A stretch of DNA of 64,000 bases from sequence record PZ583738.1; one strand, given 5' to 3'. A program made the position numbers and the translations under genes. Of this stretch, positions 30,439-34,027 are shown one piece after another. The notes below the pieces were generated by a model. The model saw only the letters and a list, made by a program, of their open reading frames with translations, was not told where the DNA came from and made no database searches. Source of the DNA: a phage. How positions within the stretch are numbered: position 1 is the stretch's first letter; every line of letters starts with the position of its first letter.

Positions 30439-30772
30439 ACCAGAAAAATTTGTGTACGCAGACAAGATTGATAAAGACCTTATGCCTCCATTTGGAGCTT
30501 TGTCCATGTGCATCGTTGGGGTTATAATGATGGTGCTTTGTGGGGATATGAATATCATTAGTGTTGGAGTCGCCTGGTCACTAATAATTGCAGCACCTTT
30601 TATTACAGTCCTGAGCATGATATTGATAAACGTGTGGCATCAAAATCATATGAATAAAGGATATCGTGGGCGAGTTAAAGAGTGGGAACAAAAATGTGTT
30701 TCCCTGCAAGAAGAGCACAAAATTAAATGTGCCGAAGAATTTATTAAGGAGGTTCGTAATGGAACGGCCTAG
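30413..30772 (+). CDS. small membrane protein
   Basis: 119 aa from ATG 30413; two hydrophobic helices; C-terminus EEFIKEVRNG. Confidence 0.45.
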   Translation: MRTLYLPSKPEKFVYADKIDKDLMPPFGALSMCIVGVIMMVLCGDMNIISVGVAWSLIIAAPFITVLSMILINVWHQNHMNKGYRGRVKEWEQKCVSLQEEHKIKCAEEFIKEVRNGTA

Positions 30773-31112
30773 TCTTGCATCACATGTTTATCAATTGGCT
30801 GAATATGATATTGGTGCCAGTTTATTATTAGGGATTGTCACCGCCATGCTTGGCGGTTTGGTTGGTCTGGTAATGACCACGGTTATGGCTGCAATCGAGG
30901 GAGTCATGCCTATTGATATGGGCTTCTTTATGATAATTGCTCCGGCTGTTGTGGCTTATTTTATCCCTGTTGTGTATGATATCTGTCACACAAACGCCTT
31001 GAATGCTCCTAGTCGGAAGAGATATGCTTCAGCAATGGCTGAGTATAATAAGTTCCTAGACAAAACAAAACGTAATGACCTTGAAACCTTTATTAAGGAA
31101 TGTAAATCATGA
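30759..31112 (+). CDS. small membrane protein
   Basis: 117 aa from ATG 30759 with SD AAGGAGG; multiple hydrophobic segments; C-terminus ETFIKECKS. Confidence 0.45.
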   Translation: MERPSLASHVYQLAEYDIGASLLLGIVTAMLGGLVGLVMTTVMAAIEGVMPIDMGFFMIIAPAVVAYFIPVVYDICHTNALNAPSRKRYASAMAEYNKFLDKTKRNDLETFIKECKS

Positions 31113-31399
31113 ATAAAATTGAAATTGCTATCCCCAAGTATTATGATGAAAAATCTGCAGAAAAAGCTATCTATTCTCTTCTAAATAAGACCTCTGAAAT
31201 TGAAAAACACTGCGAAGAAATCGCAGATGAATACGGTATCCAATTCGGTACCGGTGATTATGGTTCAGGCCGTACATATTATCCTGTCGGTTATGAATGC
31301 TCCAAGTGGTTTAAAGATGAAATTGAAAACAACGGCGGCGAAGTTGAAAACGGTGTCGTTACAGTTGGTGCTTGGGTCTCCTCTTCGGCAATGTGCTAA
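31109..31399 (+). CDS. WVSSSxxC-terminus family protein 1
   Basis: 96 aa; ends AWVSSSAMC; first of four tandem paralogs. Confidence 0.55.
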   Translation: MNKIEIAIPKYYDEKSAEKAIYSLLNKTSEIEKHCEEIADEYGIQFGTGDYGSGRTYYPVGYECSKWFKDEIENNGGEVENGVVTVGAWVSSSAMC

Positions 31400-31408
31400 G
31401 GAAACTCT

Positions 31409-31690
31409 ATGATGAATGATTACCGTAAAAATAAAGAACTGGCTAACGCAGTAAATGACATCCATAAAGCTATTCGTCGTGCCGAGGAAATTGCAAACAA
31501 ATATGAGACTCATTTTAATATATACCCTGCTCGCGGTATGGGCGGTGACTATTATTCTCCTGGCGCCCTGAAAGCCGACCTTGCTCATTGGGAAGAACAT
31601 GGCCATCCTGAATGGGCTATTGTTAATACTCATGACTATACAACTGACCTGGAAAAAGGCGGTTGGGTGTCCTCCTCTTCTGAATGTTAA
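31409..31690 (+). CDS. WVSSSxxC-terminus family protein 2
   Basis: 93 aa; ends GWVSSSSEC; shares EEIAxxY..F..G..YYxPG region with protein 1. Confidence 0.55.
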   Translation: MMNDYRKNKELANAVNDIHKAIRRAEEIANKYETHFNIYPARGMGGDYYSPGALKADLAHWEEHGHPEWAIVNTHDYTTDLEKGGWVSSSSEC

Positions 31691-31698
31691 GGAATGTT

Positions 31699-31896
31699 AT
31701 GTCTCGTGAATTAGATTGTGCAATCCGTACTGCTGCGGCAGCTATTGAAAACGTTATCCAGATTTGCAAAGAAGAACGCGAAGAAGCTGATATCTATATC
31801 GATGGTGTTCGTGACCTAGAACGACATATCACGCTTTATAATGGTTGTATTACAATTAGTGGTACCTCTTGGGTGTCCTCCTCTTACGAATGCTAA
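31699..31896 (+). CDS. WVSSSxxC-terminus family protein 3
   Basis: 65 aa from ATG 31699 (SD TAAGGAA as in paralogs); ends SWVSSSYEC. Confidence 0.5.
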   Translation: MSRELDCAIRTAAAAIENVIQICKEEREEADIYIDGVRDLERHITLYNGCITISGTSWVSSSYEC

Positions 31897-31905
31897 GGAA
31901 TAAAA

Positions 31906-32130
31906 ATGTCTGATATTAATGAATTAGAAAAAGCAGCACTTGAACTGGCTGCATTGTATAAGAAAGTAAAAGATATGGCTAACGCTCAAGATTTCGGTAT
32001 TGAGCTTGACGAATATGATGGTGAGGTTCGTCTCGAAGACTGGTTGTACAGCTCTTGCTATGGCGAAGACGCTGGTCGCACCTTTGTTGCTCAACCTGAC
32101 GGTAAAATCTGGCACCCGAGTAGCTGCTAA
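31906..32130 (+). CDS. WVSSSxxC-terminus family protein 4 (divergent)
   Basis: 74 aa; ends KIWHPSSC; same junction architecture. Confidence 0.45.
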   Translation: MSDINELEKAALELAALYKKVKDMANAQDFGIELDEYDGEVRLEDWLYSSCYGEDAGRTFVAQPDGKIWHPSSC

Positions 32131-32175
32131 AATTATCACAAGGATGTGATAGGAGGACTTATGTGCAGAAATTTA

Positions 32176-32205
32176 GTGTACAAGCCTAAAGAAACGTAGT
32201 ATCAT
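32176..32205 (+). promoter_or_regulatory. early promoter (PeSL-like cassette)
   Basis: -35 GTGTAC, 18-nt spacer, -10 TATCAT; palindrome ATCACA..TGTGAT just upstream. Confidence 0.45.
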
Positions 32206-32233
32206 TATCTCGTCAACTAATGAGGAAAATATT

Positions 32234-32401
32234 ATGTATAATGTTCTTATTGTTTTTGTCACTCACCCGCAAGGTGGAGTAAGACAGAATACTTCTCAAG
32301 TGGTTCAATTTTCTTCACTAGAGGCCGCCAATCTTGCTGCCTCACGAATTGAAGCGAAAAAATCGGCACTTGGAAAATATGAAGTAACTCGTCTTTACTA
32401 A
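32234..32401 (+). CDS. hypothetical small protein
   Basis: 55 aa; ATG preceded by AATGAGGAAAATATT, a leader also found before ORFs 32415 and 34087. Confidence 0.35.
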   Translation: MYNVLIVFVTHPQGGVRQNTSQVVQFSSLEAANLAASRIEAKKSALGKYEVTRLY

Positions 32402-32414
32402 TGAGGAAAATATT

Positions 32415-33380
32415 ATGATGTTAGTTATTGGTTCTCGTGCATTACATAACGCTGGTCTGATTGAAAGTCAGAAAATTGAAAACTCTGATTGGGACTTTAT
32501 CGCTGACCAAGGCTCCTGGAACCACTTTAAAGCACGTATGTTCGGTGCTCATGTTCCTGTGGATAACCCTAACGTCCAAGCTTTTAAATGTATGTACAAT
32601 GGCAAAGAAACCTATTTTGAAGCTTATATTGTCCGTGCCCTGACCAACGTACGAGAAATTACTGGTGAGCTTCAAGACGAAGATTTCACCTCAAGTTATC
32701 GTCTCCTGAAATATGCTGAAAATCATATTAAAAAAGATCGTCTTACAGGTTTTTACTGGGCAACTCCTGATATTTGTCTGGCAATTAAATTATCTCATCG
32801 TTACCTGAAGAACAATCCATTCTTCCTGAAGACCATGAGTCATATTAATTACCTTCGCAATAAGGGTATTGTTCTTAATGATGAACTGCAGAAAATCATG
32901 CTGCAGCGTCAGGCAGAGACACTGTCATACAGTCACCCTAAACTAGACGTGGGCAAGAAAACTTTCTTTAATGATACAATCTATACCCTTGACCATGACT
33001 CCATCCACGAGGCCGTGGCGCTTGCTGATAAGCCTGCATATAAGTTCTATATGAAGGATGATTCAGAAGTCATGACCTCGCGTGAAAAATTTGAAGCACT
33101 CCCTGATGTTATTAAACTGGCAGGGGTTTATGAAGAAGCATGTGTGCTCGCTCTGGAGCGTTCGCAGGTTCCTAATGAGTTCAATATCTCTCCATCCGTG
33201 AGCTTCCATATTGCGCTGGAAAAAGTCTGCACCTCCATTACGTCTGGATGGTTTCGCACCTTCGCATATGAAAATTACGGCAAAATTATAAGTATGTATA
33301 ATGCTTTAGGTCATGACGATTATATTAAACGTTTTAAGGCTAACCAGCATTTAATTAAACCATTCAAAAAGGATGAATGA
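32415..33380 (+). CDS. hypothetical protein with possible nucleotidyltransferase-like N-terminal motif
   Basis: 321 aa; VIGSRALHNAG..ENSDWDF loosely fits hG[GS]x(n)[DE]h[DE]h; otherwise unrecognised. Confidence 0.5.
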   Translation: MMLVIGSRALHNAGLIESQKIENSDWDFIADQGSWNHFKARMFGAHVPVDNPNVQAFKCMYNGKETYFEAYIVRALTNVREITGELQDEDFTSSYRLLKYAENHIKKDRLTGFYWATPDICLAIKLSHRYLKNNPFFLKTMSHINYLRNKGIVLNDELQKIMLQRQAETLSYSHPKLDVGKKTFFNDTIYTLDHDSIHEAVALADKPAYKFYMKDDSEVMTSREKFEALPDVIKLAGVYEEACVLALERSQVPNEFNISPSVSFHIALEKVCTSITSGWFRTFAYENYGKIISMYNALGHDDYIKRFKANQHLIKPFKKDE

Positions 33381-34027
33381 TGGGAAGACCATTAGAAGAT
33401 TTGACTGGTAAAATTATTAATGGAATCAAATTTGTTTCGGTAGCATATAAAACCGCTGGAGTTTCTACTAAATGGAATTGTATTTGTCATTGTGGTAAAG
33501 AGTTTGTCACAGCCGCCGCTCGTATAAAATCAGGTAAAACCAAATCATGCGGCTGTCAGAAATATCATTATTCATTTATTTCTGACAAACCTACGTATTC
33601 ATCGTATGCTGCCATGATTGAAAGGTGTACAAATCCTAACCATCATCGTTGGAAGCAGTATGGTGGCGCTGGTGTACAAATATGTGATAGGTGGCTACCA
33701 AAGGGAAAAACTGGTTATTTGAATTTTGTTGAAGATATGGGTATTCGTCCAGCAGGTACAAGCATTAATCGGATAAATTCATGTAAGCTATACAGTAAAG
33801 AAACTTGCGAATGGGCTTCATCATCAATACAGTCATTTGACCAGGATACCCGAAAAGATTCACCTGGTCCAATTACAGGTGTCAAGTTTAGAAAAGACAG
33901 AGGTAAATGGATATCATATATTACTGTTAATCATAAAGAAATCCAACTTTACTATGGTGATTCTCGCGACGAAGCAATAGAAAGACGACGCACCGCTGAA
34001 TTGAAATATTATAATAGACAAAAATAA
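33377..34027 (+). CDS. AP2-domain endonuclease-like protein (homing endonuclease-associated family)
   Basis: 216 aa; YSSYAAMIERCTNPNHHRWKQYGGAGVQICDRW and MGIRPAGTSINRINS..CEWAS pattern, then C-terminal AP2-like segment ITGVKFRKDRGKWISYI..LYYGDSRDEAIERR. Confidence 0.45.
   Translation: MMGRPLEDLTGKIINGIKFVSVAYKTAGVSTKWNCICHCGKEFVTAAARIKSGKTKSCGCQKYHYSFISDKPTYSSYAAMIERCTNPNHHRWKQYGGAGVQICDRWLPKGKTGYLNFVEDMGIRPAGTSINRINSCKLYSKETCEWASSSIQSFDQDTRKDSPGPITGVKFRKDRGKWISYITVNHKEIQLYYGDSRDEAIERRRTAELKYYNRQK

Follow-up and report, generated by a model that had tools for sequence, protein, structure and literature searches.

Why should four neighbouring phage genes, standing in tandem, all end in much the same short peptide closing on cysteine? 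The genes lie in a 64,000-nucleotide stretch of sequence record PZ583738.1 (the window), which comes from a Gaprivervirus, a VR7/JS98-like T-even coliphage; positions 30700-32700 share 95-97% identity with phages VR7, VR20, VR26, P8 and ECML-359. Here, we ask whether it is the peptide or the nucleotides at the gene junctions that are conserved, how widespread the tail is, and which other gene accompanies it. The answers point to a two-component phage module, made up of the small proteins and a predicted nucleotidyltransferase encoded downstream of them.

Four genes with a common tail

A sequence-only reading of the window had picked out four adjacent open reading frames (ORFs) of 96, 93, 65 and 74 amino acids with the C-termini AWVSSSAMC, GWVSSSSEC, SWVSSSYEC and KIWHPSSC, and we confirmed both their coordinates and their C-termini. 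The four ORFs are co-directional (+ strand) and all end in W-x-x-S-S-x(0-2)-C-stop. ORF1 (31109-31399; ..GDYGSGRTYYPVG..GAWVSSSAMC) follows a TAAGGAA Shine-Dalgarno (SD) site at 31094-31100, within the 3' end of the e.3 homologue; its tail, W-V-S-S-S-A-M-C, occupies 31376-31396, and its stop codon (31397-31399) again overlaps TAAGGAA. In ORF2 (31409-31690; ..YPARGMGGDYYSPG..GGWVSSSSEC), the terminal Cys is the sole cysteine. ORF3 (31699-31896; MSRELDCA..SWVSSSYEC) is the minimal unit of helix, hairpin and tail; its start is the ATG at 31699, matching all homologues, while the mechanically called ORF begins at 31684. ORF4 (31906-32130) has two copies of the motif: by motif alignment, an internal W-L-Y-S-S-C at 32041-32058, followed by YGE, and the terminal W-H-P-S-S-C (..KIWHPSSC) at 32113-32127, with a stop codon (32128-32130) that has no GGAA after it. 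The net charges of the four proteins are -8, -5, -6 and -9, respectively.

This tail pattern is far beyond chance in the window. The regular expression W..[SGTN][SNGT].{0,3}C-stop matches 4 of 395 mechanically called small ORFs in the 64 kb, and these four are exactly the array. Compared with same-length orthologues, the ratio of nonsynonymous to synonymous substitution rates (dN/dS) is 0.09-0.11 for ORF1, 0.16-0.27 for ORF2, 0.00-0.08 for ORF3 and 0.05-0.15 for ORF4. Since this range (0.00-0.27) indicates purifying selection, the four ORFs are almost certainly real protein-coding genes.

Protein tail or RNA element

The sequence-only reading had also claimed that the junctions between these genes are conserved at the nucleotide level. 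This holds for the ends of ORF2 and ORF3, whose tail codons contain the only two copies in the window of the exact 16-mer TGGGTGTCCTCCTCTT (31664-31679 and 31870-31885, + strand), but not for the end of ORF1, which is encoded by other synonymous codons (GTC TCC TCT TCG). Likewise, the succession of stop, TAAGGAA and next ATG, described for each gene, is found after ORF1 to ORF3 but not after ORF4, which ends TAA-AATTATC with the next gene 104 nt on. TAAGGAA occurs 22 times in the window against 12.0 +/- 3.5 in shuffles, and genes of this genome are often coupled by a Cys-TAA end that overlaps a strong SD (TAAGGA).

To see which codons encode the tail, we surveyed every tail from all fetched loci, giving 193 distinct nucleotide versions. 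Both conserved Ser positions use all six codons, with AGY making up about one third (the first position has TCT 59, AGC 35, AGT 32, TCC 30, TCA 22 and TCG 7). The terminal Cys is encoded by TGC in 128 tails and TGT in 65, and the stop codon is TAA in 162, TGA in 24 and TAG in 7. The spacer between the two serines and the Cys is 2 residues long in 141 tails, absent in 42, and 3 or 1 residues long in 8 and 2, respectively. The tail is thus preserved across synonymous codon turnover, including switches between TCN and AGY serine codons. As such a switch requires two substitutions, selection very probably acts on the peptide.

Could the conserved feature nevertheless be an mRNA structure made of TGGGTGTCCTCCTCTT..TAAGGAA, in which an anti-SD-like CCUCCUC pairs with the downstream SD and controls the next gene, leaving the peptide as a frame artefact? 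The 16-mer is repeated exactly at two junctions, and for two of the three junctions the minimum-free-energy fold contains a 4-bp pairing of the CCUC/GAGG type. However, the junctions fold no better than dinucleotide shuffles (z-scores +0.37, +1.57 and +0.95), and Rfam has no match within 30500-33000 at E up to 1. Of the 193 tails, just 6 contain CCTCCTC, whereas the peptide persists whichever synonymous codon family encodes it. In Marfavirus, Winklervirus and Aeromonas phages, TAAGGAA is lost and the tail persists, and dN/dS is low across the whole ORFs. With folding, Rfam, codon turnover and dN/dS all against it, the RNA element that had been proposed for these junctions is rejected, and with it the frame artefact; this reading is effectively refuted.

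The nucleotide identity between ORF2 and ORF3 still needs an explanation, as their identical V, S, S, S and E codons would be expected by chance with a probability of about 0.002 under the window's own codon usage. This identity is confined to Gaprivervirus and Dhakavirus, and the Mosigvirus paralogs differ, which is indicative of local gene conversion or of a recent common origin. A further gene, here called type E (69-75 aa, ...GFW[YF]xSSMSC), stands between ORF3 and ORF4 in VR7 and most Gaprivervirus and Dhakavirus relatives, and is missing from the window (31894-31908; compare locus L001, 6196-6447). In VR7, it is bounded exactly by TGCTAAGG..ATAAAATG junctions, and the ORF3/ORF4 junction of the window is a chimera of the two VR7 junctions. 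Judging by these breakpoints, which fall inside TGCTAAGG..ATAAAATG, the junction repeats act as cassette boundaries and recombination points.

It is a different matter whether the Cys-stop-SD-ATG junction is kept at the nucleotide level for that purpose, as a selected boundary for shuffling members between co-infecting phages. The type E breakpoints, the chimeric junction, the above-chance codon sharing and a copy number that varies from 1 to 5 among relatives would all fit. Yet the identity is limited to Gaprivervirus and Dhakavirus, with different codons at the paralogous junctions of Mosigvirus, Marfavirus and others, and short repeats that arise from protein and translation constraints can mediate recombination without being selected for it. 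We therefore find a selected recombination signal very unlikely. Instead, the junction conservation may have three sources: it would be a by-product of the constrained tail (a single Trp codon, Cys and TAA), of the stop codon overlapping a strong SD for translational coupling, and of local recombination between tandem paralogs, which would also gain and lose whole gene cassettes.

A phage-wide family of Cys-tailed proteins

Profile searches place ORF1, ORF2 and ORF4 in phrog_899 (E 5e-23, 8.9e-20 and 2.3e-9) and ORF3 in phrog_4882 (E 2.4e-36), both PHROGs without assigned function. In a profile-profile alignment (E 2e-5, probability 77%), the type of tail found in ORF3 matches the internal motif of the ORF4 type, which ties the two together. 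Cross-genus comparison gives five subtypes: type A (ORF1; ..GDYGSGRTYYPxG..GxWVSSSxxC), type B (ORF2; ..YPAYGMGGxY..GGWVSSSxxC), type C (ORF3; MSRELDCA..GWVSSSYxC), type D (ORF4; ..FxDWxSSxC[YF]GEG..W..SSC) and type E, absent from the window (..GFWYxSSMxC). Each is conserved as orthologues across genera, and only the fold and the tail are common to all. There are also hybrid members, in which a type B core is joined to an internal and a terminal motif. Together with the alignment of types C and D, these hybrids indicate a basic unit of helix, beta-hairpin and W-x-S-S-x-C, present once or twice. The family thus consists of paralogous, phage-wide small proteins (~60-160 aa) of alpha/beta type, with a long N-terminal helix, a beta-hairpin and a C-terminal W-x-x-S-S-x(0-3)-Cys. 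They are strongly acidic, with a median net charge of -10 per 100 aa.

The terminal Cys is present in 85 of 85 database homologues, and the chain stops right after it in about 207 of the 212 true members found near partner genes. At the level of sequence, this, the synonymous turnover and the purifying selection support the earlier suggestion that the terminal Cys motif could be a tag on the protein. Exceptions to a chain end at Cys are rare. A 144-aa relative ends ...GW[IQ]SSSICW, with the Cys penultimate and then a Trp (L013 2969-3403; also in L053-L055, L080 and L089). P0210, P0218 and one ORF of L037 end ...SSTQECN, and one ORF of L085 ends ...DSGCTS. A variant without the Cys (...SSSQN-stop, in L009) is not a point mutation; it diverges from L010 and L048 beyond that point.

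We modelled ORF4 with AlphaFold2 from a 51-sequence alignment. The model has a folded body (pLDDT 84.6), with a helix at residues 2-27 and a beta-hairpin at 30-45, both at 89-96, while the two motif regions reach only ~65-66; the tail is probably exposed and flexible. A fold search of BFVD with this model returned only the family's own uncharacterised members.

The sequence-only reading had not recognised the family, and neither do the databases: against Pfam, NCBIfam and PADLOC, the small ORFs gave only sub-threshold noise (FYRN, COX5A and Phage_186_Fil). A mixed-subtype profile run against 1.84 billion representatives found 22 clusters at E up to 1e-3 and no informative fusions, at the limited sensitivity of a short profile. 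Its single long match, P0222 (1,632 aa), is an unrelated repeat protein.

Two superficial resemblances deserve mention. The N-terminal helix followed by a C-terminal SS..C recalls ribosomally synthesised and post-translationally modified peptides (RiPPs), yet the body is predicted to be folded and the Ser-Cys spacing runs from 0 to 3. Pfam scans of the neighbouring genes found no RiPP or lanthipeptide maturation enzyme (LanB/C/M/KC/L, YcaO, radical SAM or LanD). The small proteins also resemble the ubiquitin-conjugating (UBC, E2)/RWD fold, but this is a resemblance only; no subtype has an HPN motif, the Cys is the last residue of the chain rather than part of an active-site loop, and no E1, ubiquitin-like protein (Ubl) or JAB gene is linked in the 80 loci described below.

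The array is linked to a downstream enzyme gene

The sequence-only reading was confined to the array, and the decisive context lies beyond it, in a conserved nucleotidyltransferase gene downstream (the partner). In six of six annotated phage loci from other genera, the array is followed by an ORF of 300-330 aa. Every lineage sampled has this arrangement, among them Mosigvirus, Karamvirus, Winklervirus, Tulanevirus (Aes508), Ceceduovirus (AP1) and Marfavirus; the Marfavirus partner gene, truncated in the ORF scan, is seen in the feature table. In Aes508, array and partner stand beside nrdD/nrdC rather than e.3/e.2. The same pair occurs in Pseudomonas phage PspYZU05 (beside dda), in a marine contig and in a 151-kb environmental contig, with the marine contigs carrying the linked module in a ribonucleotide reductase (RNR) neighbourhood. 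The gene pair is therefore tightly linked and survives relocation to unrelated neighbourhoods.

To remove selection bias, we then picked 80 IMG/VR viral loci solely for a homologue of the partner, a set that depends on conserved peptide patterns. In 75 of them, 1-5 ORFs carry the tail motif, and L056 adds one within a 172-aa ORF, giving 76 of 80. The motif ORFs, 210 in all, are without exception upstream of the partner and on its strand; of 827 downstream ORFs and 2,265 on the opposite strand, none has the motif. In a BLAST clustering of the 80 loci, only two families were near-universal: the partner (80/80) and the Cys-tail proteins (74/80). The next family, present in 35 loci, consists mostly of type D and E Cys-tail members (with a terminal Cys in 33 of its 51 ORFs); among unrelated families, the commonest reaches 31 of 80. 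This clustering revealed no third conserved component (E1, Ubl, lyase or kinase). The linkage of array and enzyme is real.

We also looked for bacterial homes of the module with two conserved peptide patterns, a scan that may miss diverged copies. It returned only five contigs from metagenome-assembled genomes (MAGs), all phage-looking; the four long ones all carry tail-motif ORFs beside the partner. In the marine contigs (L009 3424-3864 and L010 147-587), a 146-aa protein matching Pfam Phage_T4_Y00F and a 44-aa ORF lie between the tail-motif genes and the enzyme. Both end in Cys (...EAQKC and ...GKWC) and lack the W-x-x-SS motif, and their ends may be a coincidence.

Linkage alone could also arise if the tail had nothing to do with the enzyme. 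It could serve metal binding, oligomerisation, thiol chemistry or recognition of a host target, with the enzyme encoded next to it as part of one counter-defence or host-takeover pathway; it might be a degron, a carrier arm for persulfides or thioesters, or part of a Zn or Fe-S site shared by several proteins with one Cys each. Apart from the Cys, no residue that might act as ligand or nucleophile is universally conserved. ORF2 has this Cys alone, and ORF4-type proteins, with two motif copies, have two. The strong acidity is like that of many phage inhibitor or mimic proteins, and the block lies in the hypervariable e-tRNA region, where accessory genes accumulate. Against this, the enzyme linkage survives the moves to nrdD, dda and RNR and spans jumbo phages, Acinetobacter phages and environmental phages, no sulfur-transfer enzyme, E1 or Ubl turned up as a third conserved gene, and Ser is not a typical metal ligand, yet the Ser-Ser pair is as conserved as the Cys. 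A tail independent of the enzyme thus seems unlikely.

The partner is a predicted nucleotidyltransferase

In the window, the partner gene (32415-33380, + strand) encodes 321 aa, of which residues 2-101 match Pfam DUF7277 (E 2.2e-26) and residues 120-305 match DUF7275 (E 1.3e-73). Its relatives in databases number 1,925, and at least 732 of 50,697 deposited phage genomes encode it. Its AlphaFold2 model (mean pLDDT 91.8, pTM 0.86) has the alpha-beta-alpha-beta-alpha-beta core of the DNA polymerase beta (Pol-beta) superfamily. Alignment of 70 sequences shows D25, D27 and E69 to be invariant and G6 and S7 to be at least 90% conserved, giving 'iGSrAl..(17)..D.D.i'. This has the form of motif I (hG[GS] followed by [DE]h[DE]h), with a G-to-D spacing of 18 residues; the textbook spacing, 9-13, is shorter. 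For motif II (h[DE]h), E69 lies in the model strand 64-73, an equivalence judged from its position.

The C-terminal domain has its own invariant residues (K125, H128, K139, R165, E168, Y172, H174, H194, D195, H198, C243 and C272). All but two residues of the KVCTSITSGWFR block are invariant, T273 and W279 are at least 90% conserved, and D193 is near-invariant in DUF7275. In MenT and AbiEii, the C-terminal motifs III and IV are a conserved Lys and Asp (e.g. K189 and D211 of MenT3). Possible candidates for these in DUF7275 are K125, K139, D195 and D193. On the model, the partner is a Pol-beta nucleotidyltransferase with an intact-looking active site, predicted to be structurally nearest to the MenT/AbiEii toxins.

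Sequence searches give little beyond this. The partner has no NCBIfam or PADLOC match, and neither it nor its 70-sequence profile found a relative in the PDB; a match to PsaB at E 1.1 is nothing real. T4 nrdC.3 (308 aa) was considered as a homologue and ruled out, as it has no tblastn similarity and is unrelated.

Surrounding genes and annotation

The array lies in the variable e-tRNA segment. The gene order in VR7 is e.4, e.3, five small hypothetical ORFs, ORF137c, ORF136c (321 aa), ORF135c, ORF134c, e.2, nudE and e, with ip genes on the flanks of the e-tRNA region. In T4 (67652-68319), e.3 immediately adjoins e.2, so the array and nucleotidyltransferase block, absent at this syntenic site, is an accessory insertion relative to T4. 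We scanned T4 at 1-50 kb and 64-74 kb, and the 1-50 kb part has no homologue of array or enzyme and no tail-motif ORF. In all annotated records examined, the array genes are labelled hypothetical or given plainly spurious automatic names. Those in Escherichia phage EAWsc9 (PQ341120.1) are 'CAZy families GH13 protein', 'Ig-like domain-containing protein', 'malate synthase', 'transposase' and 'WGR domain-containing protein'; these look like annotation artefacts, as no profile search backs them.

Directly 3' of the array is an 8-bp hairpin without a T-run (32133-32152, + strand), conserved in VR7. The sequence after the ORF4 stop reads UUAUCACA-AGGA-UGUGAUAG for this hairpin, then AGGAGG and a 12-codon mini-ORF (32162-32200, + strand). 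A promoter-like TGTACA-17-TATCAT lies at 32177-32205, and GTTTACA-type boxes resembling early promoters are also found 3' of the array in PhAPEC2, F48 and LC53. Between array and enzyme gene, Gapriverviruses only have a 55-aa ORF (32234-32401, + strand; phrog_20278, E 2.9e-43), in place of which Dhakaviruses and Mosigviruses have an unrelated ORF of ~79 aa (..YGVRFEDAHC..).

On the other side of the enzyme gene, a 216-aa ORF (33377-34027, + strand) has a start codon that overlaps the nucleotidyltransferase stop (ATGA). It has a Cys-rich N-terminus (CICHCGKEF...SCGCQ) and no Pfam match. VR7 has it as ORF135c ('similar to Pseudomonas phage D3 ORF78'), EAWsc9 and PhAPEC2 lack it at that position, and it is possibly a mobile insertion of the homing-endonuclease kind. 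Adjacent genes for tRNA-Met (CAT) and tRNA-Arg (TCT) lie at 26004-26156 (+ strand), ~5 kb 5' of the array.

What the tail may do

A nucleotidyltransferase gene with small partner genes upstream is a known kind of arrangement. What is new here is that it is phage-borne, with multiple partners and a distinctive Cys-ending tag. The nearest comparison is MenA-MenT of Mycobacterium tuberculosis (DUF1814), with which the phage enzyme shares Pol-beta motif I and II residues. Diverse upstream-encoded proteins control MenT toxins (PMC11375011; PMC7450476), and MenA1, of 7.4 kDa and encoded directly upstream of MenT1, needs only its N-terminal helix to trigger inactivating auto-phosphorylation of MenT (PMC11375011). 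However, the phage enzyme is in families of its own (DUF7277/DUF7275), with no AbiEii/DUF1814 sequence match. It is larger (~310 aa), with many extra invariant His, Asp and Cys, and it is carried by phages, whereas MenA-MenT is chromosomal. Its 1-5 paralogous partners have an invariant Cys-ending tail that MenA proteins lack. The type IV toxin-antitoxin system AbiEi-AbiEii likewise combines an upstream partner gene with an enzyme of the MenT nucleotidyltransferase superfamily (PMC7450476). With ~200 aa, its AbiEi is a transcriptional regulator of the winged-helix type and no relative of the small acidic proteins, and AbiE is a bacterial anti-phage defence with no PADLOC model match here, as opposed to a module carried by phages.

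These precedents suggest that the small proteins could dock on the nucleotidyltransferase unmodified. They would then inhibit or time a toxic tRNA-directed enzyme in the manner of MenA or AbiEi, possibly via auto-phosphorylation, or serve as interchangeable specificity subunits. The gene order is that of MenA-MenT and AbiEi-AbiEii, the closest structural relatives of the enzyme are toxins, and ORF4 has a confident 26-residue N-terminal helix to set beside the helix through which MenA1 works. As adaptors, the divergent paralogs with one tail would also be accounted for. A simple antitoxin role, on the other hand, leaves unexplained why there are 2-5 paralogs, each kept as an orthologue across genera, and why both halves should be found in an early gene block of a strictly lytic phage. 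The small proteins resemble MenA or AbiEi neither in sequence nor in fold (with PADLOC, Pfam and NCBIfam negative), and the invariant Ser-Ser and terminal Cys resemble chemistry more than a plain binding peptide. This is the main rival explanation, and we regard it as rather unlikely.

The explanation that we favour, tentatively and at a little under even confidence, is that the acidic Cys-tail proteins and the nucleotidyltransferase form a module in which the tail is the shared handle and the proteins are probably clients. That the tail contacts the enzyme is slightly the better bet; that the small proteins are substrates rather than regulators is possible, though on the doubtful side. The tail would be the common handle through which each divergent small protein enters the enzyme. 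The hydroxyl of a conserved tail serine may then accept a nucleotidyl (or phosphoryl) group, with the terminal Cys and its carboxylate helping to position the tail at the metal site, and the modified acidic proteins could act on host targets early in infection.

Nucleotidyltransferases usually transfer a nucleoside monophosphate (NMP) to hydroxyl acceptors, and we favour clients because the invariant residues beside the anchoring Trp are two serines. Moreover, one enzyme with many tagged substrates fits better than one toxin with one antitoxin, as several long-retained paralogs share only the tail. The closest functional precedent is MntA-HepT, where a small Pol-beta nucleotidyltransferase poly-AMPylates a hydroxyl side chain of the adjacently encoded protein. 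That system has a single partner, a HEPN RNase toxin modified on a tyrosine, and no HEPN domain or homology was detected here. The idea of one short terminal tag for a common machine also has a parallel in the T4 internal proteins, divergent small accessory proteins of the hypervariable e-tRNA region that share an N-terminal capsid-targeting sequence, cleaved by the prohead protease. The present tag is instead C-terminal and Cys-ending, and its linkage is with a nucleotidyltransferase gene, not with genes for the head.

Several observations weigh against this explanation. Conserved gene order could reflect a shared pathway without physical interaction, and two lineages of the partner gene (L039; L060/L062/L069) have no motif ORF within 4 kb upstream. 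A few members of the family end ...QECN, ...GCTS or ...ICW. The spacer between the serines and the Cys varies (0, 1, 2 or 3), and the internal motif copy of ORF4-type proteins has no free carboxylate, which together argue against one rigid chemical role for 'Cys-COOH'. On the enzyme side, a Pfam search (hmmscan, E up to 1) matched only DUF7275 and DUF7277 and not AbiEii/DUF1814 (PF08843). Finally, the substrates of the enzyme's known relatives are tRNA 3' ends or antibiotics, not proteins (PMC7450476).

Going further, this might be a new kind of phage protein-modification system, in which one MenT-like enzyme covalently modifies the tails of many acidic effectors, although this is a long shot by our own reckoning. 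Ser-O-nucleotidylylation is one candidate reaction; another is activation with subsequent Cys-dependent chemistry, such as elimination and cyclisation. Either would arm the proteins against host targets or defences. The logic of one enzyme with many tagged clients is comparable to that of RiPP and ubiquitin-like systems, but with a Pol-beta fold.

Significance

The proteins described here are members of phrog_899, phrog_4882, DUF7277 and DUF7275, all catalogue entries without assigned function. Neither the database family entries nor the annotated records that we examined mention the tail rule or the two-component linkage. A literature search for DUF7275/DUF7277, phrog_899, Cys-ended phage proteins and MenT in phage likewise found no account of the tail rule, the linkage or the enzyme. 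The module was probably overlooked because it is absent from the syntenic site of the model phage T4. Enzyme-bearing phages infect, among others, Escherichia, Klebsiella, Enterobacter, Acinetobacter, Aeromonas, Pseudomonas, Vibrio and Stenotrophomonas, and many are candidates for therapy, yet both components of the module are nameless.

A simple sequence rule (a W-x-x-S-S-x(0-3)-C end, upstream of DUF7277/DUF7275) now defines a directly testable two-gene module. Should the enzyme modify the tails, it would represent a new type of post-translational modification in viruses. Should the small proteins instead restrain a toxin-like, tRNA-directed enzyme, phages would be deploying an enzyme class that bacteria use against them (AbiE). 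Either outcome would annotate hundreds of 'hypothetical' genes and bear on how these phages take over their hosts or counter their defences.

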